Notes: a model not told the origin generated them from the letters alone. Shown: positions 4,071 through 18,533, counted from the stretch's first letter. The stretch is DNA of 18,533 nt from a virus (IMGVR_UViG_2541047722_000018:1-18533), one strand, 5' to 3'. Numbers and translations are program-made.

Positions 4071-4414
4071 CTGCGCGTTATCTCGGAATGAATCGCAGTG
4101 ATGGCCTGACTGTCACTGACCTTGAGCATATCAGCCAGAGTATCGGCGATATCCTGCGCACGCCGGTCGGCTCACGGGTGATGCGTCGTGATTACGGTTC
4201 GTTGCTGGCGTCAATGATTGACCAGCCGCAGACCCCGGCGCTTGAGTTGCAGATTAAGGTCGCCTGTTACATGGCGGTGCTGAAATGGGAACCCCGCGTC
4301 ACCCTGTCATCCGTCACCACGGCGCGCAGTTTTGACGGGCGAATGACGGTCACGTTAACCGGTCAGCACAACGACACCGGCCAGCCACTTTCGTTAACCA
4401 TCCCTGTGAGTTGA
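4067..4414 (+). CDS. W: Baseplate wedge protein (P2 gpW-like, T4 gp25 family), 115 aa
   Basis: Overlaps the V stop (ATGA); size and order as P2 W. Confidence 0.85.
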   Translation: MTARYLGMNRSDGLTVTDLEHISQSIGDILRTPVGSRVMRRDYGSLLASMIDQPQTPALELQIKVACYMAVLKWEPRVTLSSVTTARSFDGRMTVTLTGQHNDTGQPLSLTIPVS

Positions 4415-4418
4415 AACC

Positions 4419-5327
4419 ATGCCGATTATCGACCTGAACCAGCTACCCGCACCGGATGTGGTTGAGGAGCTGGACTTTGAAACCATTCTTGCCGAACGCA
4501 AGGCGACACTGATTTCCCTTTACCCGGAAGACCAGCAGGAGGCGGTCGCCCGTACCCTGACGCTGGAATCCGAGCCTCTCGTCAAACTGCTGGAGGAAAA
4601 TGCTTATCGTGAGCTTATCTGGCGTCAGCGTGTGAATGAGGCCGCACGGGCGGTAATGCTGGCCAGTGCCGCCGGTAATGACCTTGATGTGATTGGTGCC
4701 AATTACAATACCACGCGCCTGATTATCACCCCGGCAGATGATTCGACCATCCCGCCGACACCGGCAGTAATGGAATCTGACACTGATTATCGTCTGCGTA
4801 TTCAGCAGGCGTTTGAAGGTTTAAGCGTCGCCGGGTCGGTGGGTGCCTATCAGTATCATGGCCGCAGTGCCGACGGGCGTGTCGCGGATATCTCTGTCAC
4901 CAGTCCGTCTCCGGCCTGTGTCACCATCTCTGTGCTGTCACGTGAAAATAACGGTGTCGCATCCGAAGACCTGCTGGCCGTGGTGCGTAACGCCCTTAAT
5001 GGTGAGGACGTCAGGCCGGTGGCTGACCGTGTGACCGTGCAGTCTGCCGCCATTGTTGAATACCAGATAAACGCCACGCTTTACCTTTACCCTGGTCCCG
5101 AAAGCGAACCCATCCGCGCGGCCGCCGTGAAAAAGCTGGAAGCGTACATCACGGCACAGCACCGGCTGGGGCGCGACATCCGTCTGTCTGCCATTTATGC
5201 CGCTTTGCATGTGGAAGGCGTGCAGCGTGTCGAGCTGGCGGCACCACTGGCCGACATCGTGCTCAACAGTACGCAGGCGTCTTTCTGTACCGAATACCGC
5301 GTCGTGACCGGAGGCTCGGATGAGTGA
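4419..5327 (+). CDS. J: Baseplate protein (P2 gpJ-like), 302 aa
   Basis: Size and order as P2 J. Confidence 0.85.
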   Translation: MPIIDLNQLPAPDVVEELDFETILAERKATLISLYPEDQQEAVARTLTLESEPLVKLLEENAYRELIWRQRVNEAARAVMLASAAGNDLDVIGANYNTTRLIITPADDSTIPPTPAVMESDTDYRLRIQQAFEGLSVAGSVGAYQYHGRSADGRVADISVTSPSPACVTISVLSRENNGVASEDLLAVVRNALNGEDVRPVADRVTVQSAAIVEYQINATLYLYPGPESEPIRAAAVKKLEAYITAQHRLGRDIRLSAIYAALHVEGVQRVELAAPLADIVLNSTQASFCTEYRVVTGGSDE

Positions 5328-5860: not shown

Positions 5861-8647
5861 ATGAGCACGAAATTTAAAACCGTTATCACTACTGCCGGAG
5901 CCGCAAAGCTGGCAGCCGCCACTGTCCCCGGCGGGAAAAAAGTAAACCTGTCTGCAATGGCCGTGGGTGACGGTAATGGCAAATTGCCGGTGCCGGATGC
6001 CGGTCAGACGAAACTGGTGCATGAGGTCTGGCGTCACGCTCTGAATAAAGTCAGCGTGGATAACAAGAATAAAAACTATATCGTGGCTGAACTGGTTGTA
6101 CCGCCAGAAGTGGGCGGCTTCTGGATGCGTGAACTTGGTCTGTATGACGATGCCGGAACACTGATTGCGGTATCCAACATGGCAGAAAGCTATAAGCCAG
6201 AACTGGCTGAAGGCTCCGGACGTGCGCAGACCTGCCGCATGGTTATTATTCTCAGCAACGTGGCGTCCGTTGAGCTGAGTATTGATGCCAGCACGGTGAT
6301 GGCGACGCAGGATTACGTCGATGACAAAATCGCAGAGCATGAGCAGTCCCGCCGCCATCCTGACGCCACGCTGACAGAAAAAGGTTTTACTCAGTTAAGC
6401 AGTGCAACAAACAGCACCAGTGAAAAGCTGGCAGCAACGCCAAAGGCAGTAAAAGCAGCCTATGACAATGCTGAAAAACGTATGCAGAAAGACCAGAACG
6501 GTGGCGATATTCCAGATAAGGGCGCTTTTCTGGACAATGTTGGCGTTACCAGCCTGACGTTTATGAAAAACAATGGCGAAATGCCGCTTGATGCTGATCT
6601 GAATACATTTGGTCCCGTTAAGGCTTATCTGGGGATCTGGTCTAAAGCTACCTCAACTAACGCAACACTGGAGAAAAATTTTCCGGAAGATAATGCTGTC
6701 GGTGTGCTTGAGGTTTTTGCTGCCGGCAATTTTGCAGGTACGCAACGCTTCACCACGAGAGACGGCAATGTATACATACGCAGACTCGCCAATAAGTGGA
6801 ATGGCTCTGATGGTCCGTGGGGCATATGGCGTCACACTCAATCAGCTACCCGCCCTTTGAGTACGACTATAGACCTGAATACGCTTGGAGCCGCCGAACA
6901 TCTTGGTTTATGGCGTAACAGTAGCTCGGCTATAGCTTCATATGAACGCAATTATCCAGAGGAAGGCGGCTTTGCTCAGGGGATGCTTGAGATCCTCGAA
7001 GGCGGGAATTATGGAAGAACGCAACGTTATACCACTCGCCGTGGAAATATGTATGTCCGCTGCCTTGCGGCAAGCTGGGATGTATCAAATCCGCAGTGGG
7101 AACCGTGGTTAAGAGTCGGTCATCAGTCAGAGAGTCGTTATTACGAAGGTGATTTAAATGTTCTAACCGACCCCGGTATTTACAGTGTTACAGGAAAGGC
7201 AACAAACGGTCCGATGCTGGACACCGTTGGCGCGACACTACTTGGGATACTGGAAGTAATCAGACGTTTTGATGGTGTGTCTGTCTGGCAGCGTTACACA
7301 ACCACAGGGAAATCAGAAACCACACAGGGACGCACTTTTGAGCGCGTCTACGCCGGGAGCAAATGGACCGAATGGCGAGAAGTATATAACTCCTTTTCGT
7401 TGCCTCTGAATCTGGGCATCGGTGGCGCAGTGGCAAAACTATCCAGTCTGGACTGGCAGACCTACGATTTTGTGCCGGGCAGTCTGATAACCGTGCGGCT
7501 TGATAACATGACCAACATTCCCGACGGTATGGACTGGGGCGTCATTGATGGCAACCTGATAAACATCGCAGTTGGTCCGAGTGATGATTCCGGTACGGGA
7601 CGCTCAATGCATGTATGGCGAAGCACTGTAAGTAAAGCCAACTACCGCTTTTTTATGGTGCGCGTTTCAGGAAATCCGGGAAGCCGCACGATTACAACAA
7701 GACGAGTACCAATCATTGACGAAGCCCAGACATGGGGCGCGAAACAGACATTCAGTGCTGGCCTTTCTGGTGAACTGTTCGGCAATGCTGCGACAGCAAC
7801 AAAGCTGAAAACAGCCCGTAAAATTAATAACGTTTCGTTTGATGGAACATCAGATATTAACCTGACGCCTGAAGATATTGGTGCATTGCCAATAACGGGA
7901 GGAACTCTTACCGGCGGTTTAACTGCTGCTGGCGAGATTATTTCCAAATCGGCGAATGGTCTTCGTATTGCCTATGGCAACTATGGATTCTTTATCCGAA
8001 ACGATGGTTCAAGCACATACCTCATGTTGACCAATTCGGGCGACAGCCTGGGAACATGGAATAGTTTAAGGCCGCTTACCATTAATAACGCCAGTGGAGC
8101 TGTTTCTATCGGTAATAGTTTAACTGTTAATGGTGATATAGGAACCAATGCTTGGGTATATGCAAATCGTTTTGCAATTAATAGCAGTACCGGAATGTGG
8201 ATAAATATGCGTGACCAGAATGTTATTTTTGGACGTAATGCGGTATCCACCGATGGTGCTCAGGCATTGTTACGTCAGGACCATGCTGATCGCAAATTTA
8301 TGATTGGTGGTCTGGGGAATAAGCAATTTGGCATCTACATGATTAATAATTCAAGGACAGCCAATGGCACCGATGGTCAGGCGTACATGGATAATAACGG
8401 GAATTGGCTTTGCGGTGCGCAAGTTATTCCCGGCAATTATGGTAATTTTGACTCACGCTATGTGAGAGATGTCAGACTTGGCACACGTGTTGTTCAGACC
8501 ATGCAAAAAGGCGTGATGTATGAAAAATCAGGTCATGTAATCACGGGGCTTGGTATTGTCGGTGAAGTCGATGGTGATGACCCCGCAGTATTCAGACCAA
8601 TACAAAAATACATCAATGGCACATGGTATAACGTCGCACAGGTGTAA
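5861..8647 (+). CDS. H: Tail fibre protein (P2 gpH-like N-terminus, divergent repeat-containing distal region), 928 aa
   Basis: N-terminus MSTKFKTVITTAGAAKLAAA... is the conserved P2-type fibre anchor. It is longer than the 669 aa I recall for P2 H. It has three tandem ~92-aa repeats, a GGTLTGGL motif common in enterobacterial phage fibres, and a visibly more AT-rich distal part. Confidence 0.85.
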   Translation: MSTKFKTVITTAGAAKLAAATVPGGKKVNLSAMAVGDGNGKLPVPDAGQTKLVHEVWRHALNKVSVDNKNKNYIVAELVVPPEVGGFWMRELGLYDDAGTLIAVSNMAESYKPELAEGSGRAQTCRMVIILSNVASVELSIDASTVMATQDYVDDKIAEHEQSRRHPDATLTEKGFTQLSSATNSTSEKLAATPKAVKAAYDNAEKRMQKDQNGGDIPDKGAFLDNVGVTSLTFMKNNGEMPLDADLNTFGPVKAYLGIWSKATSTNATLEKNFPEDNAVGVLEVFAAGNFAGTQRFTTRDGNVYIRRLANKWNGSDGPWGIWRHTQSATRPLSTTIDLNTLGAAEHLGLWRNSSSAIASYERNYPEEGGFAQGMLEILEGGNYGRTQRYTTRRGNMYVRCLAASWDVSNPQWEPWLRVGHQSESRYYEGDLNVLTDPGIYSVTGKATNGPMLDTVGATLLGILEVIRRFDGVSVWQRYTTTGKSETTQGRTFERVYAGSKWTEWREVYNSFSLPLNLGIGGAVAKLSSLDWQTYDFVPGSLITVRLDNMTNIPDGMDWGVIDGNLINIAVGPSDDSGTGRSMHVWRSTVSKANYRFFMVRVSGNPGSRTITTRRVPIIDEAQTWGAKQTFSAGLSGELFGNAATATKLKTARKINNVSFDGTSDINLTPEDIGALPITGGTLTGGLTAAGEIISKSANGLRIAYGNYGFFIRNDGSSTYLMLTNSGDSLGTWNSLRPLTINNASGAVSIGNSLTVNGDIGTNAWVYANRFAINSSTGMWINMRDQNVIFGRNAVSTDGAQALLRQDHADRKFMIGGLGNKQFGIYMINNSRTANGTDGQAYMDNNGNWLCGAQVIPGNYGNFDSRYVRDVRLGTRVVQTMQKGVMYEKSGHVITGLGIVGEVDGDDPAVFRPIQKYINGTWYNVAQV
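6599..7385 (+). repeat. Three tandem ~92-aa (276-279 nt) protein-level repeats inside tail fibre H
   Basis: Repeat units start at 6599, 6875 and 7154, each beginning with an LNT/LNV motif and sharing an ...L(E)VxxxGN(F/Y)xxTQR(F/Y)TTRxGNxYxRxLAxxW... core. Confidence 0.6.
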
Positions 8648-8650
8648 TTT

Positions 8651-9178
8651 ATGCAGCATTTAAAAAATATTACTGCGGGTAATCCAAAAACTGTTGCCCA
8701 ATATCAACTGACAAAAAATTTTGATGTTATCTGGTTATGGTCCGAAGAGGGAAAAAACTGGTATGAGGAAGTAAGTAATTTTCAGGAAGACACGATAAAG
8801 ATTGTTTACGACGAGAATAATATAATTGTCGGCATCACCAGAGATGCTTCAACGCTCAACCCTGAAGGTTTTAGCGTTGTCGAGGTTCCTGATATTACCG
8901 CCAACCGACGTGCTGATGACTCAGGTAAATGGATGTTTAAGGATGGTGCCGTGATTAAGCGGATTTATACGGCAGACGAACAGCAACAACAGGCAGAATC
9001 ACAAAAGGCCGCGTTACTTTCCGAAACCGAATCCGTGATTTTGCCGCTGGAGCGCGCTGTCAGGCTGAATATGGCAACAGATGAGGAGCGCAGTCGACTG
9101 GAAGCATGGGAACGCTACAGCGTTCTGGTCAGTCGTGTGGATCCTGCAAATCCTGAATGGCCGGAAATGCCGCAATAA
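8651..9178 (+). CDS. G: Tail fibre assembly protein / chaperone (P2 gpG, Tfa family), 175 aa
   Basis: Directly after H; size as P2 G; AT-rich like the distal part of H; ends ...[12 protein letters not shown]. Confidence 0.8.
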
Positions 9179-9331
9179 GTTGTATGAGCTCTGGTGGGAG
9201 CTTACATATCTATGGCACAGAGTAAAGCCTAATCTGACAGTCCGCTCTGTGCTAGGAGCGGACATTGTTGCCATCTATCTGCATAAATCTGTGGGGAGCT
9301 GCTCACTTGTGGGGAATGAGTCCTCAACTGT

Positions 9332-9360
9332 TTGCGTTTATAAACACAATCCTTTAGATT
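9332..9360 (+). promoter_or_regulatory. Candidate sigma70 promoter for the cargo ORF
   Basis: TTGCGT (9332-9337), 17-nt spacer, TAGATT (9355-9360), about 30 nt upstream of the cargo start; each hexamer matches consensus at 4/6 only. Confidence 0.3.
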
Positions 9361-9390
9361 CTCTCCTACTATCTACTAAAATTTTATCTA

Positions 9391-10518
9391 GTGAAAATGC
9401 CCAATAATCATATGTATGCAAGTCTACTGTCTTACAAAAACTTAAAGATGGCACATCAAGGAAGTAACTTACGGTCTATTACTGAGTTTTCTCTCTATTC
9501 AGATAGTCAACCAATTGGGGCGGTTGATGATGATTCAGTTTATTGTTTTCTGAATATGTTACCCAGGATAACCAAACAATCCACCGTTGCATCTTCAATT
9601 ACAGTGCGCACAAAGTGGTATAGTGACTTAAATAATATGATTCTTTCTAGTTCTCAGAGTCATACAAAGGATTATCATGGTGGATGGTATAATGATGAAA
9701 TAGCTGCGCTTTCAAGTTTACTGCTTGGTGTCCGTTTTCATGCTGGGTCAATTACTCGTCACTATGATTACTACACAGGTGATTTCGGAAGGATCCAAGC
9801 GGAGAGTTCTTTTCCTCCCGTTTTAGAGTTTAAACATAACAAACCTATAGTTCCTAATGCTATCAAAGAAATTGATATAACTAACCTTAAAGAGCTTAAC
9901 AATTTACATCTCTTAAGTGAAAAGAATTTCAACCATTTAATTAGAGCAGCCAGAAGCTATCAAAATGCATTATGGATATGCGAGTCATCTCCAAATATGA
10001 GTTGGCTATTGATGGTGTCAGCCCTAGAATGTGCGGCTAATCAATGGGCAAAATCCAATGCGTCTAAAGAAGAAAGATTTAAACATGCCAAGCCTGAATT
10101 ATATGAAAAATTAGATACCAATGAATTTAGACATTTAATCTCTATTATTGCTAATGAGTTTAAAGATTCATTTGGGGCGACAAAGAAGTTTGTGGATTTC
10201 TGCCTGTATTTCCTTCCAGATGAACCTCAAGTGAGGCCAAAAGTAGGAAGAATTGATTGGGGAAAAGAATCGCTATCAACAACTTTTAAAAAAATATATA
10301 ACTACCGTTCTAAGGCATTGCATGGAGGACAACCATTTCCTGAGCCGATGTGTTCCTATCCTGAAGTATGGGATGGGTATATTGCTGAACGAGCGAGAGC
10401 ATGTTCAACCTTAGGTGGAACGTGGTTGAATGAAGATGTGCCAATTAATTTAAATACATTCAACTTTATGACCCATTCCATTTTGAATAAGTGGTGGCAA
10501 TCTTTATTACCAAGTTAA
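9391..10518 (+). CDS. Hypothetical protein, cargo gene at the G/FI variable locus; candidate anti-phage defence protein (possible C-terminal HEPN-like R-x4-H motif), up to 375 aa
   Basis: Single long ORF in an AT-rich island: hand count 20/60 G+C at its 5' end versus 33/60 at the start of FI. Start uncertain (GTG 9391, ATG 9397 or downstream ATGs; no strong SD). No transmembrane segments or P-loop seen. Occupies the P2 Z/fun position. Confidence 0.6.
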   Translation: MKMPNNHMYASLLSYKNLKMAHQGSNLRSITEFSLYSDSQPIGAVDDDSVYCFLNMLPRITKQSTVASSITVRTKWYSDLNNMILSSSQSHTKDYHGGWYNDEIAALSSLLLGVRFHAGSITRHYDYYTGDFGRIQAESSFPPVLEFKHNKPIVPNAIKEIDITNLKELNNLHLLSEKNFNHLIRAARSYQNALWICESSPNMSWLLMVSALECAANQWAKSNASKEERFKHAKPELYEKLDTNEFRHLISIIANEFKDSFGATKKFVDFCLYFLPDEPQVRPKVGRIDWGKESLSTTFKKIYNYRSKALHGGQPFPEPMCSYPEVWDGYIAERARACSTLGGTWLNEDVPINLNTFNFMTHSILNKWWQSLLPS

Positions 10519-10540
10519 CACTGTAAGTATCAGTGTTAAC
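10514..10540. repeat. Perfect 10-bp inverted repeat overlapping the cargo stop codon
   Basis: GTTAACACTG (10514-10523), 7-nt spacer, CAGTGTTAAC (10531-10540). Confidence 0.6.
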
Positions 10541-10609
10541 TGCACCATGTAATTTTATATCTGTACCAGACTGGAGGAAAATGTTCGCTTATCGCTCATT
10601 AGGGTCAAC

Positions 10610-10648
10610 CATACTCAAATCTCTCACATTGCAGGAGATTTGAGTATG
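10610..10648. repeat. Perfect 14-bp inverted repeat with 11-nt spacer
   Basis: CATACTCAAATCTC (10610-10623), spacer tcacattgcag, GAGATTTGAGTATG (10635-10648). Confidence 0.6.
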
Positions 10649-10671
10649 AACACGTCACCGTGGAAGGACTG

Positions 10672-10694
10672 GCGGGCGAATTGCCCGCTTTTTT
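10672..10694 (+). terminator. Rho-independent terminator downstream of the cargo ORF
   Basis: GCGGGC-gaatt-GCCCGC stem-loop followed by TTTTTT on the + strand. Confidence 0.6.
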
Positions 10695-10792
10695 GTATCT
10701 GTTGTTTCATCCACTGACCAGCCAGGTCAAATAGCGTCTCATGCTCTGCACAACAGAAAATAGTTGCACCCATTAACCACGGAGTTAAACGG

Positions 10793-11983
10793 ATGAGTGA
10801 CTATCATCACGGCGTGCAGGTGCTGGAGATTAACGACGGCACCCGCGTCATTTCCACCGTATCCACCGCCATTGTTGGCATGGTCTGCACGGCCAGCGAT
10901 GCGGATGCGGAAACCTTCCCCGTCAATAAACCGGTGCTGATCACCAATGTGCAGAGCGCGATTGCAAAGGCCGGTAAAAAAGGTACGCTGGCGGCATCGT
11001 TGCAGGCCATCGCTGACCAGTCAAAACCGGTCACCGTTGTCGTGCGCGTGGAAGACGGCACCGGCGACGACGAAGAAACGAAACTCGCGCAGACCGTTTC
11101 CAATATCATCGGCACCACTGACGAAAACGGTCAGTACACCGGACTGAAAGCCCTGATGGGCGCAGAGTCGGTTACCGGCGTTAAACCGCGCATTCTCGGC
11201 GTACCGGGACTGGACACCAAAGAGGTGGCGGTTGCACTGGCATCGGTATGCCAGGAACTGAATGCCTTCGGGTATATCAGCGCATGGGGCTGTAAAACCA
11301 TTTCCGAGGCAAAAGCCTACCGTCAGAATTTCAGTCAGCGTGAGCTGATGGTCATCTGGCCGGATTTCCTTGCATGGGATACGGTCACCAGTACCACCGC
11401 CACCGCGTATGCCACCGCCCGTGCGCTGGGGCTGCGTGCCAAAATCGACCAGGAGCAGGGCTGGCATAAAACGCTGTCCAACGTCGGGGTAAACGGTGTT
11501 ACCGGCATCAGCGCATCTGTATTCTGGGATTTGCAGAAGTCTGGCACTGATGCTGACCTGCTGAACGAGGCAGGCGTCACAACGCTGGTTCGCCGCGACG
11601 GTTTCCGTTTCTGGGGTAACCGTACCTGCTCCGATGACCCACTTTTCCTCTTTGAAAGCTACACACGTACCGCGCAGGTACTGGCCGACACGATGGCTGA
11701 GGCGCACATGTGGGCTATTGATAAGCCCATCACCGCAACGCTGATTCGCGACATCATTGATGGCATCAATGCCAAATTCCGCGAACTGAAAAACAACGGT
11801 TATATCGTGGATGGCACATGCTGGTTCAGTGAAGAAGCCAACGATGCGGAAACCCTCAAGGCCGGAAAACTGTATATCGACTACGACTATACACCGGTGC
11901 CTCCTCTCGAAAACCTGACCCTGCGCCAGCGTATTACTTCAAGATACCTGGCAAGTCTGGTCACCTCGGTTAACAGCAATTAA
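10793..11983 (+). CDS. FI: Contractile tail sheath protein (P2 gpFI-like), 396 aa
   Basis: GGAG RBS before the ATG; size and order as P2 FI; first gene of the FI-FII-E-T-U-D operon. Confidence 0.9.
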   Translation: MSDYHHGVQVLEINDGTRVISTVSTAIVGMVCTASDADAETFPVNKPVLITNVQSAIAKAGKKGTLAASLQAIADQSKPVTVVVRVEDGTGDDEETKLAQTVSNIIGTTDENGQYTGLKALMGAESVTGVKPRILGVPGLDTKEVAVALASVCQELNAFGYISAWGCKTISEAKAYRQNFSQRELMVIWPDFLAWDTVTSTTATAYATARALGLRAKIDQEQGWHKTLSNVGVNGVTGISASVFWDLQKSGTDADLLNEAGVTTLVRRDGFRFWGNRTCSDDPLFLFESYTRTAQVLADTMAEAHMWAIDKPITATLIRDIIDGINAKFRELKNNGYIVDGTCWFSEEANDAETLKAGKLYIDYDYTPVPPLENLTLRQRITSRYLASLVTSVNSN

Positions 11984-17430: not shown

Positions 17431-17521
17431 ATGGTCGATGTGGACGCTATGTGGACAGTGGTTGACATAAATCCATTTATATCATCAGGTTAGGTGCTTT
17501 TTTGTGACACCATCCCTGTCT
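17431..17521. other. Probable attR region of the prophage (integrase arm-type direct repeats plus core); exact core not determinable from this window
   Basis: Lies between the last phage gene (ogr) and host sequence. ATGTGGAC occurs twice (17438-17445 and 17449-17456) with 11-bp periodicity. Confidence 0.35.
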
Positions 17522-17548: not shown

Positions 17549-17630
17549 TATCCTCAATTTGCCTGCTGCTTAATGCATTGCAGATGATTTGCTTCCGTTA
17601 TACTACCGTCAGTTGATAGCGGGAGTATTT

Positions 17631-18533
17631 ATGAATCAATCTTATGGACGGCTGGTCAGTCGGGCGGCGATTGCTGCGACGGCGATGGCTTCGCTGCTAT
17701 TGCTGATTAAAATTTTTGCATGGTGGTATACCGGGTCGGTGAGTATTCTCGCCGCGCTGGTGGATTCGCTGGTGGATATCGGCGCGTCGTTGACGAATTT
17801 ACTGGTGGTGCGATATTCCCTGCAACCTGCCGACGATAATCACTCGTTTGGTCACGGTAAAGCTGAGTCCCTCGCGGCGCTGGCGCAAAGTATGTTTATC
17901 TCCGGTTCGGCACTATTCCTGTTTTTGACGGGTATTCAACATCTGGTATCTCCAACACCGATGACAGATCCAGGCGTCGGGGTTATCGTGACAATTGTGG
18001 CGCTAATTTGTACGATTATCCTTGTCTCGTTTCAGCGTTGGGTGGTGCGCCGGACGCAAAGCCAGGCGGTGCGGGCTGATATGCTACATTACCAGTCTGA
18101 TGTTATGATGAACGGCGCAATTCTGCTGGCGCTGGGGTTGTCCTGGTACGGCTGGCATCGCGCCGATGCTCTGTTTGCATTGGGGATCGGCATCTATATT
18201 TTATATAGCGCGTTACGCATGGGATATGAGGCGGTACAGTCATTACTGGATCGCGCATTGCCTGATGAGGAACGGCAAGAAATTATTGATATCGTGACTT
18301 CCTGGCCGGGTGTTAGCGGCGCTCACGATCTTCGCACGCGGCAGTCAGGGCCGACCCGCTTTATTCAGATTCATTTGGAAATGGAAGACTCTCTGCCTTT
18401 GGTTCAGGCACATATGGTGGCGGATCAGGTAGAGCAGGCTATTTTACGGCGTTTTCCGGGATCGGATGTGATTATCCATCAGGACCCCTGTTCCGTCGTA
18501 CCCAGGGAGGGTAAACGGTCTATGCTTTCATAA
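17631..18533 (+). CDS. fieF: Cation-diffusion-facilitator family ferrous-iron/zinc efflux transporter FieF (YiiP)
   Basis: [54 protein letters not shown]... matches my recollection of E. coli FieF; GGGAG RBS before the ATG at 17631; the track start at 17589 is an over-extension; the window ends at the stop codon. Confidence 0.9.

Follow-up and report, generated by a model that had tools for sequence, protein, structure and literature searches.

The segment at positions 9290 to 9360 of the window (the whole stretch of 18,533 nucleotides of viral DNA that was analysed, IMGVR_UViG_2541047722_000018) is, on balance, probably the 5' control region of an acquired cassette in the Z/fun slot of a P2-like prophage. 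In this reading, the cassette gene encodes a HEPN-fold protein and has a sigma70 promoter of its own (TTGCGT-17-TAGATT, hereafter P1), while the two copies of TGTGGGGA further upstream are incidental. Our verdict is that the control region is of the ordinary moron type, serving an uncharacterised HEPN cargo gene in a known P2 hotspot. The coordinates of the features are collected in Table 1.

Table 1. Features of the cassette and its surroundings, numbered from the first letter of the window.
Feature	Position	Strand	Remarks
Gene G, tail fibre assembly protein	8651..9178	+	Pfam Caudo_TAP, E=1e-34; position as P2 gene G
Conserved non-coding segment of the P2 backbone	9179..9266	+	homology to ~1,460 E. 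coli records and to P2
Hairpin GTCCGCTCT-GTGCTA-GGAGCGGAC	9240..9266	+	left cassette edge; common to the P2 backbone and non-P2 islands
TGTGGGGA, copy 1	9290..9297	+	about -75 from the predicted start; 12% of columns invariant
TGTGGGGA, copy 2	9308..9315	+	about -57 from the predicted start; 25% of columns invariant
Perfect TGT-N12-ACA (9329-9346) in the near-perfect 18-bp palindrome TTGCGTTTATAAACACAA (9332-9349)	9329..9349		overlaps the -35 and spacer of P1
Putative -35 hexamer of P1, TTGCGT	9332..9337	+	TTG..T invariant in five lineages
Putative -10 hexamer of P1, TAGATT	9355..9360	+	invariant in five lineages, 17-nt spacing kept
Alternative or tandem promoter candidate, TTTAGA-18-TAAAAT	9353..9382	+	9 of 12 consensus positions; PWM rank 7 of 185,020
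Cargo gene, 373-aa HEPN-fold protein	9397..10518	+	R304-x4-H309 motif; no curated family
11-bp perfect hairpin over the stop codon	10513..10541	+	no adjacent U-tract; -14.3 kcal/mol
Cassette right end	10586..10665	+	perfect inverted repeat with 14-nt arms (10610-10648), then the start of an integrase gene
Canonical intrinsic terminator, GGCGGGCGAATTGCCCGC followed by T6	10671..10689	+	terminator scan; P2 backbone, similar sequence in P2
Ogr activator site of late promoter pF (TGT-N12-CCA)	10703..10720	+	upstream of FI; position as the annotated P2 pF site

Genomic setting of the insert

The window reads as the late region of a P2-like (Peduovirus) prophage. As in P2, gene H (5861-8647) is followed by G, the cargo ORF, FI (10793-11983, assigned through its Pfam sheath domains) and the remaining tail operon. 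G is the final gene of the P2-type V-W-J-I-H-G late operon and forms the left neighbour of the cargo slot. The interval between G and FI corresponds to the classical Z/fun variable slot of P2, a hotspot that has been described by Rousset et al. 2022 (PMC9122126). Other cargo found in this slot comprises Shedu, LysR/MFS genes, fun(Z) and P2-EC30 ORF1.

The cargo gene is a low-GC insert in the Z/fun slot, with a GC content of 0.32-0.42 as compared to 0.50-0.61 for the flanks. Matches to the flanks were returned from 2,158 of 5,426 complete E. coli genomes, this insert from only 5; in these genomes and in P2-like phages, many different inserts are found between G and FI. E. coli strains that carry the cassette include N21, N54 and XJ34. 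It is also present in 8 phage records, which include vB_EcoM-720R8 and several 'Yersinia' P2-like phages. Two marks of a moron, the variable-slot position between G and FI and a deviant base composition, are therefore seen here. The P2-borne copies of the cassette are near-identical, with 2 differences in 1,614 bp between the window and vB_YpM_22, and are for that reason uninformative on constraint.

Boundaries and mobility of the cassette

Homology to P2 backbones that carry other cargo ends at ~9262-9278 on the left and restarts at 10665 on the right. The nearest copy of the gene outside P2 is found in chromosomal islands of Enterobacter hormaechei (97% protein and 95.3% DNA identity). There, homology to the window spans 9235/9240-10590; an AbiGi gene then intervenes, after which homology resumes for 10586-10665, a segment that in these islands directly precedes a 200-aa integrase. 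The points at which the Enterobacter and P2 backbone homologies end delimit a unit of ~9240-10665, a single-gene cassette of 1.43 kb that appears to have been horizontally acquired.

The left edge is occupied by a hairpin, and the surrounding segment (9236-9280) folds with -18.3 kcal/mol (z=-3.1). Homology to the Enterobacter island begins at 9235/9240 in two different left contexts, and the left hairpin element is also found in the E. coli islands L112, L113 and L056 (locus handles of this analysis). This hairpin is probably the crossover point. Together with its tail AUUGUUGCC, which has 4 U in 8 and narrowly misses the rule of the terminator scan, it could possibly act as a weak terminator as well. 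The conserved backbone segment that ends with the hairpin corresponds to the 'left inverted repeat' of the P2 Z-region GenBank records (repeat_region, AJ512676).

At the right end, the 80 or so nucleotides listed in Table 1 are 92.5-94.6% identical to positions 4997-5076 of L104 and 6524-6596 of L112, where the integrase coding sequence begins. The first 20 nt of that integrase gene have been kept in the cassette (ATGAACACGTCACCGTGGAA, 10646-10665, coding for MNTSPW). The right-end hairpin is strongly structured (-20.5 kcal/mol, z=-5.9). The cassette seems to move between the P2-like Z/fun slot and an integrase-adjacent slot in E. coli and Enterobacter islands.

The left hairpin, of 27-35 bp (GTCCGCTCTGTGCYAGGAGCGGAC), is the same in P2 slots and islands, and also borders unrelated cargo such as a reverse transcriptase and a LysR/MFS module. 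It could conceivably be a dedicated recombination site, analogous to the attC sites of integrons, through which defence cassettes made up of promoter and gene are exchanged between phages and islands, although we regard this as unlikely; alternatively, it may be a mere shared terminator that anchors homologous recombination. The idea of a recombination site has reportedly been put forward before, at least in part, as the title and the 'inverted repeat' annotations of a 2004 study of the Z region suggest; the Z-region GenBank records AJ512676-AJ512685 are said to be from that work by Nilsson, Karlsson & Haggard-Ljungquist. For P2 hotspots, it is to a large extent established that defence cassettes travel as units of promoter and gene with a recurring hairpin at their borders.

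A separate repeat, D1, is present around the left junction (TCTGGTGGGAGCT at 9190 and TCTGTGGGGAGCT at 9288, with 85% identity), and is a possible trace of a duplicated junction.

A conserved promoter-like block upstream of the cargo gene

A preliminary description of this DNA had proposed a sigma70 promoter, TTGCGT-17 nt-TAGATT at 9332-9360, about 30 nt ahead of the ORF. The coordinates are exact; from the end of the -10 hexamer it is 30 nt to the GTG at 9391 and 36 nt to the ATG at 9397, which is conserved. The assignment as a promoter of the cargo gene is also supported, by conservation and not by the strength of the sequence. P1 agrees with the consensus at 7 of 12 positions (3 of 6 in TTGCGT, in which the TTG is present, and 4 of 6 in TAGATT, which has the key A of position 2 and T of position 6). 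The consensus scan, whose threshold it does not reach, lists the overlapping TTTAGA-18-TAAAAT instead. In the region 8600-11000 the scan returned 5 promoter-like sites, against 6.1 +/- 2.5 in shuffled sequences. With a rough position weight matrix (PWM), P1 ranks 19th among 185,020 combinations of position and spacer in the window (top 0.01%), in a region that is AT-rich. The ogr promoter, known from P2, served as a positive control: the site at its position ranks 2nd.

Conservation was evaluated in an alignment of five lineages (the window, Enterobacter, L046, L048 and L049), four of which lie outside P2 prophages. The proteins of L046, L048 and L049 share 84%, 83% and 82% identity, respectively, with that of the window, and P2 genes do not flank the gene in the fetched loci. 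The -35 hexamers of the five lineages read TTGCGT, TTGCGT, TTGCGT, TTGCCT and TTGTGT. All columns of the -10 hexamer are invariant, as are 71% of the spacer and 67% of the -35 columns, compared with 9-38% for the other non-coding segments and 40% for third codon positions, a pattern of purifying selection on the hexamers. At the rate of third codon positions, 22 invariant columns among the 29 of the promoter correspond to a binomial P of ~1e-4. The BLAST homology of L046, L048 and L049 to the window starts at 9327/9328, four bases ahead of the -35 hexamer. The block that extends from just before the -35 through the -10 thus travels with the gene into unrelated, non-P2 contexts, where it is the most conserved non-coding DNA. 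In the Enterobacter cassette, which is 95.3% identical overall, both hexamers are the same as in the window.

The conservation of the spacer exceeds what a promoter alone needs, and an overlapping regulatory site within it is possible.

Among more distant homologues, L041 (50% protein identity) shows GTGACT-17-TAGATT about as far ahead of its start codon as P1 is here, and in the Klebsiella lineage (73%) the upstream DNA is unrelated and contains promoter-like sites of its own. For each homologue, sites of the P1 type are the highest-scoring upstream promoters or close to it. A scan of genome contigs returned only homologues of <=55% identity, whose upstream regions were not alignable. In many settings, then, the gene would evidently have transcription of its own. 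GenBank records of other Z-region inserts annotate -35 and -10 elements for their own ORF (e.g. P2-EC30 ORF1), and hotspot systems of P2 and P4 that were cloned with their native promoters are active outside the phage (PMC9122126). We infer that P1 is active as a promoter and that the gene is expressed in the lysogen. In enterobacteria, H-NS would be expected to bind AT-rich foreign DNA of this kind, and with such binding the real level of expression in the lysogen may be low.

The gene might instead have no functional promoter and be expressed only as the tail of the V-W-J-I-H-G transcript, with the conserved block serving as a 5' regulatory or translation element. Such an arrangement would be in keeping with the lack of a canonical terminator between G and the cargo gene, and with promoter-like sites that are no commoner in the region than in shuffles. 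We nevertheless find it very improbable, as the same upstream block is present in islands with differing upstream neighbours (L104 versus L105), and as the upstream genes of L048 and L049 are on the opposite strand. Moreover, the conserved positions coincide with the TTG of the -35, the 17-nt spacing and the TAnnnT of the -10, and a strong hairpin separates G from the cargo gene.

Overlapping promoter and activator candidates

The best match to the consensus in the intergenic region is TTTAGA-18-TAAAAT, which overlaps P1 and outscores it in the window. Were this the main promoter, transcription would start at ~9389-9390 and the message would be almost leaderless, with a leader of 6-8 nt; the two promoters could also work in tandem. 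The cargo gene has no obvious Shine-Dalgarno sequence, and near-leaderless messages exist in the P2 group, where the V transcript of P2 is annotated from the first base of the V coding sequence. Both hexamers of the candidate are identical in L046. Its -10 is not conserved beyond that lineage, however: it reads TAACAT in Enterobacter, TTAGAT in L048 and TTAGAA in L049, and vB_YpM_22, which carries the same cassette, has an A to T change at 9381, inside the TAAAAT. The TTTAGA overlaps the invariant TAGATT block, and P1 accounts equally well for the conservation there. A main or tandem role for TTTAGA-18-TAAAAT therefore seems unlikely to us, and the lack of conservation of its -10 in L048 and L049 is why P1 is favoured.

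The -35 and spacer of P1 also coincide with a perfect TGT-N12-ACA element, the consensus published for late promoters that depend on Ogr (PMC3931495). The gene could then be under a P2-type late promoter, with 9329-9346 as an Ogr/Delta site centred ~52-56 bp upstream of a start at ~9390-9393, and the HEPN gene would be switched on when a P2-like phage or a P4 satellite expresses its late activator. The match to the consensus is perfect, TGT-N12-NCA is kept in L046, L048 and L049, and the geometry is like that of real sites, since the sites annotated in P2 for pO, pV and pF are centred at ~-55 to -58. The pF site of the window itself has the same form, and is correctly recovered by the pattern TGT-N12-[AC]CA. 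This pattern is of low information, however, with 1.55 matches expected by chance per 1.6 kb, and it is missing upstream of the other Z-slot cargo genes examined. With the TAAAAT as -10, the dyad centre would be at ~-52, off by 3-5 bp from the real sites, and at -55.5 if the start were at 9393, both starts being hypothetical. Furthermore, the same block is 100% conserved in the Enterobacter islands and other non-P2 contexts, and the fetched Enterobacter loci have no P2 genes. Control of the gene by a late promoter is, on this evidence, very improbable.

Other readings of the same DNA were discarded. The symmetry of the 18-bp palindrome is not kept in L046, L048 and L049, which speaks against an operator at this position. 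Read as sites for CRP or LexA or as Chi, the palindrome and TCTGGTGG (at 9190) match poorly by eye; true Chi sites occur in the window only at 17756 and 17768.

The direct repeats

The two copies of TGTGGGGA noted in the preliminary description are exact at 9290-9297 and 9308-9315, 18 bp apart from start to start. The pair sits inside the cassette, 24 bp past the left hairpin. The role of an operator that had been suggested for it is not borne out. The pair is at chance level: exact direct pairs of 8-mers spaced 8-40 bp apart number 27 in the window, Markov-1 shuffles yield 11.7 +/- 4.4, and a random 218-bp region of the same composition contains such a pair in ~14% of cases. Outside the 8-mer, the two 18-bp units agree at 2 of 10 bases. 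In the Enterobacter cassette copy 1 is intact. Copy 2 there carries a substitution (TTTGGGTGA), and single base pairs are inserted at about 9314 and 9319; 3 of the ~9 differences in the 157-bp upstream region fall in or beside copy 2. Neither copy is found in L046, L048 or L049 in the five-lineage alignment. The repeat region is without RNA structure (z=0.2), and a search of 8900-10900 against Rfam gave no match at E<=1. Scanning IMG/VR for TGTGGGGA-N10-TGTGGGGA returned 44 matches, all of which are unrelated sequences or tandem repeats, and none resembles this locus.

An operator for a phage- or host-encoded repressor or activator of the cargo promoter would be suggested by the exact 8-mer occurring twice within 26 bp just upstream of the promoter, and by the retention of copy 1 in Enterobacter. 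In addition, P2-type C repressors bind direct repeats of 8 bp (O1 and O2, GTTTAGAT twice, 22 bp apart). We consider such an operator very improbable. Besides the chance level of the pair and its absence from L046, L048 and L049, the Enterobacter cassette has copy 2 destroyed and the distance to the -35 altered by 2 bp, while its promoter is untouched. Both copies lie wholly upstream of the core promoter, at ~-75 and ~-57 from the predicted start, and a spacing of 18 bp, equal to 1.7 helical turns at 10.5 bp per turn, would place them on different faces of the helix. The window itself excludes the immunity region; that of vB_YpM_22, between two divergent genes of which one ends at 29639 and the other starts at 29792, contains ATTGGTGAC twice as a direct repeat and no site resembling TGTGGGGA. 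An operator of the phage C repressor was accordingly rejected, as spacing, position, sequence and half-site conservation are all unlike the P2 type.

The loose resemblance of TGTGGGGA to the arm-type site of the P2 integrase, TGTGGACA, would also suggest a binding site. The match is to 6 of 8 positions, both for TGTGGACA and for ATGTGGAC, which occurs twice in the window at 17438 and 17449. Genuine arm sites are 11 bp apart and have C at position 7, where TGTGGGGA has G. As 8-mers with two mismatches occur at ~0.4% of positions, the resemblance was treated as chance and an arm-type site was rejected. A small ORF on the forward strand (9081-9407) that covers the intergenic region was likewise dismissed, since the two 1-bp insertions in Enterobacter would break its frame.

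The copies of TGTGGGGA are best read as incidental sequence specific to this lineage, in the stretch from boundary hairpin to promoter, which is poorly constrained. The conservation data would possibly be compatible with a binding site that the lineage has acquired recently, because copy 1 is kept in Enterobacter and the P2-borne copies are near-identical.

Terminators and probable read-through from the late operon

The cargo gene had been suggested to be transcribed independently of the phage late operons, and a downstream terminator was cited in support. Its own promoter-like block agrees with the first part of this proposal, but the terminator scan found no canonical intrinsic terminator between G and the cargo gene, where the only candidate is a strong hairpin with a weak U-tract. 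The downstream terminator does exist, at 10671-10689, but it is part of the conserved phage backbone, the homology to which resumes at 10665, and is closely followed by the pF activator site. The stop codon of the cargo gene is spanned by a hairpin that is reduced to a 5-bp stem in Enterobacter and was not a hit in the terminator scan. A terminator of its own and insulation from the flanking operons, two further marks of a moron, are thus not seen in this cassette. Read-through from the late operon into the cargo gene is likely during lytic growth, because there is no canonical terminator between G and the gene and the downstream terminator belongs to the backbone. The gene would probably combine its own promoter with late-operon read-through and a borrowed backbone terminator.

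In the mechanism that we propose, the cassette gene would be transcribed from P1, with a predicted start at ~9367-9368. The transcript would have an unstructured, AU-rich leader of ~30 nt without a clear Shine-Dalgarno sequence (the segment 9361-9420 folds with -1.1 kcal/mol), and translation would begin at ATG 9397. P1 would allow the prophage to express the gene without activation of the phage late genes. In lytic growth, transcription from P1 would probably be supplemented by transcripts that run on from the late operon upstream, and transcripts of both origins would end at the backbone terminator.

The cargo gene and its product

The translation start is most likely the ATG at 9397. An AAAATGC sequence is invariant at this position, and a 3-nt indel just downstream keeps the frame. 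The start annotated in RefSeq, at 9448, removes 17 conserved residues, and the conserved MYASLLSYKN lies upstream of it; the mechanical start is the GTG at 9391.

The protein has a C-terminal helical domain with a HEPN fold and a distinct, beta-rich N-terminal domain. Across 32 sequences, with identities as low as 38%, R304 and H309 do not vary; they conform to the catalytic R-x4-6-H motif. The cargo protein itself gave no match in Pfam, NCBIfam, PADLOC or PHROGs, the 32 homologues matched no HEPN family of Pfam, and the protein profile had no sequence match in the PDB. For ApeA, there was no PADLOC match at E<=1 to this protein of 373 aa; one homologue carries the name 'Apea-like HEPN', in UniRef only. 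The cargo is probably a defence or toxin protein of the RNase type.

Implications

The analysis defines the putative control region and start codon of the cargo gene, with the promoter at 9332-9360 and the ATG at 9397. A clone of the HEPN gene, a candidate for defence, that is meant to include the native promoter should accordingly span at least 9240-10700. Insulation of the gene from the late operon is improbable, and its level may consequently rise on induction, which matters for a potentially toxic RNase, as this protein is predicted to be. Little hinges on the TGTGGGGA repeats themselves.

Comparison with known systems

The cargo protein resembles HEPN proteins of abortive infection and toxin systems (AbiV, the HEPN/MNT toxin, Csm6 and ApeA) in its C-terminal HEPN fold with R-x4-H. 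It is also alike in setting, as a single-gene cassette in a defence hotspot that in Enterobacter is next to AbiGi. It differs from these proteins in that it matches none of their sequence models, and in its size of 373 aa with an N-terminal beta-rich domain. ApeA proteins are much longer, given that an alignment of ApeA spans residues 21-557 of Ec1ApeA (bioRxiv 10.64898/2026.01.26.701840).

The TGTGGGGA pair shares with the operators O1 and O2 of the P2 C repressor at Pe the presence of two identical 8-bp direct repeats near a promoter. In P2 the operators (GTTTAGAT) have a spacing of 22 bp and lie on either side of the Pe -10, whereas the copies of TGTGGGGA are 18 bp apart, wholly upstream of the -35, unrelated in sequence and not conserved.

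Late promoters that depend on Ogr or Delta have in common with this region a perfect TGT-N12-ACA, which here lies ~50-60 bp upstream of the gene start. In contrast to those promoters, the element is also conserved outside P2 and P4 contexts, and it occurs at chance frequency. Real P2 late promoters typically have no good sigma70 -35 and -10 elements; here, unlike in typical late promoters, a good -35/-10 pair overlaps the TGT-N12-ACA.

The closest likeness is to the other morons of the Z/fun slot. In P2 itself, the fun(Z) cargo is on the opposite strand and has its own bidirectional terminator, unlike the gene described here. The present cassette differs from Z/fun-slot morons in a HEPN-fold cargo without a curated family or PADLOC model, and in the 20 nt of an island integrase gene that it has retained. 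It shares with them the G-FI slot, the low GC content, a single cargo gene with its own putative -35 and -10, and cargo of a defence-like kind, as well as the same left inverted-repeat element and, as read by eye, a degenerate right copy.

Boundaries of the cassette

The left edge of the cassette is marked by a hairpin element of 27–35 bp (GACAGTCCGCTCTGTGCYAGGAGCGGAC), which is the end of the P2 'left inverted repeat'. Outside P2, the same element occurs in E. coli and Enterobacter chromosomal islands, where it adjoins unrelated cargo: a HEPN and AbiGi pair, a reverse transcriptase of 1,229 aa, a module of LysR and MFS genes, and a hypothetical gene. The element looks like a common cassette boundary or crossover site. 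Its copies are collected in the table.

Copies of the left-edge hairpin element in the window and in chromosomal islands
Sequence	Positions
Window	9229–9266
L104/L105 (Enterobacter islands)	~2337–2368
L056 (E. coli island)	2501–2551
L112 (E. coli island)	5001–5035 and 8224–8247 (inverted)	
L113 (E. coli island)	5001–5039 and 9824–9847	

The right end of the cassette (10586–10665) is 92–95% identical to the DNA that precedes a 200-aa site-specific integrase in islands of E. coli SCU-112 and Enterobacter. From the island integrase gene, the initial 20 nt (ATGAACACGTCACCGTGGAA, MNTSPW) are kept in the window, and the gene is truncated where the P2 backbone restarts. A perfect inverted repeat with 14-nt arms lies at 10610–10648 (–20.5 kcal/mol, z = –5.9), and its terminus is the integrase start codon.

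The cargo gene and its probable promoter

Conservation across the alignment of five lineages leaves 71% of the promoter spacer (9338–9354) invariant, which is more than spacing alone would need. An unrecognised regulatory site may overlap the spacer.

The RefSeq/PGAP start of the cargo gene, ATG 9448, gives a protein of 356 aa and loses 17 residues, among them MYASLLSYKN, which is conserved throughout the family. ATG 9397 is the conserved start. The family of the encoded protein (9397–10518) is widespread, with at least 200 matches that include Methanophagales archaea, and Pfam, PADLOC, NCBIfam and PHROGs were searched and hold no model for it. The C-terminal domain is HEPN-like with an invariant R-x4-H motif, and the N-terminal domain is beta-rich. 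As an uncharacterised protein, it is a candidate for single-gene defence or abortive infection.

Sites near the prophage end

Just past the ogr terminator, ATGTGGAC occurs twice, 11 bp apart (17438–17467). The pair corresponds to the integrase arm-type sites in the P arm of P2 attP, and a TGT-N12-ACA match (17450–17467) overlaps the second copy. Two exact Chi sequences (GCTGGTGG) are found 12 bp apart on the + strand at 17756–17775, within an ORF that starts at 17589, past the prophage end.

Settings and orientation of homologues

In three Klebsiella loci (L050–L052, ~4126–4190), the putative 3' portion of a tRNA gene (GGTTCAAATCC...GCCGACCA) directly follows a 73%-identical homologue, which suggests that this homologue lies at the border of an island integrated at a tRNA gene.

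A P2-like contig from IMG/VR (L038, 4179–4262) carries a 54%-identity homologue in the same slot, but facing the other way with respect to the left inverted repeat. The cassette can thus occupy this slot in either orientation, like fun(Z) in P2.
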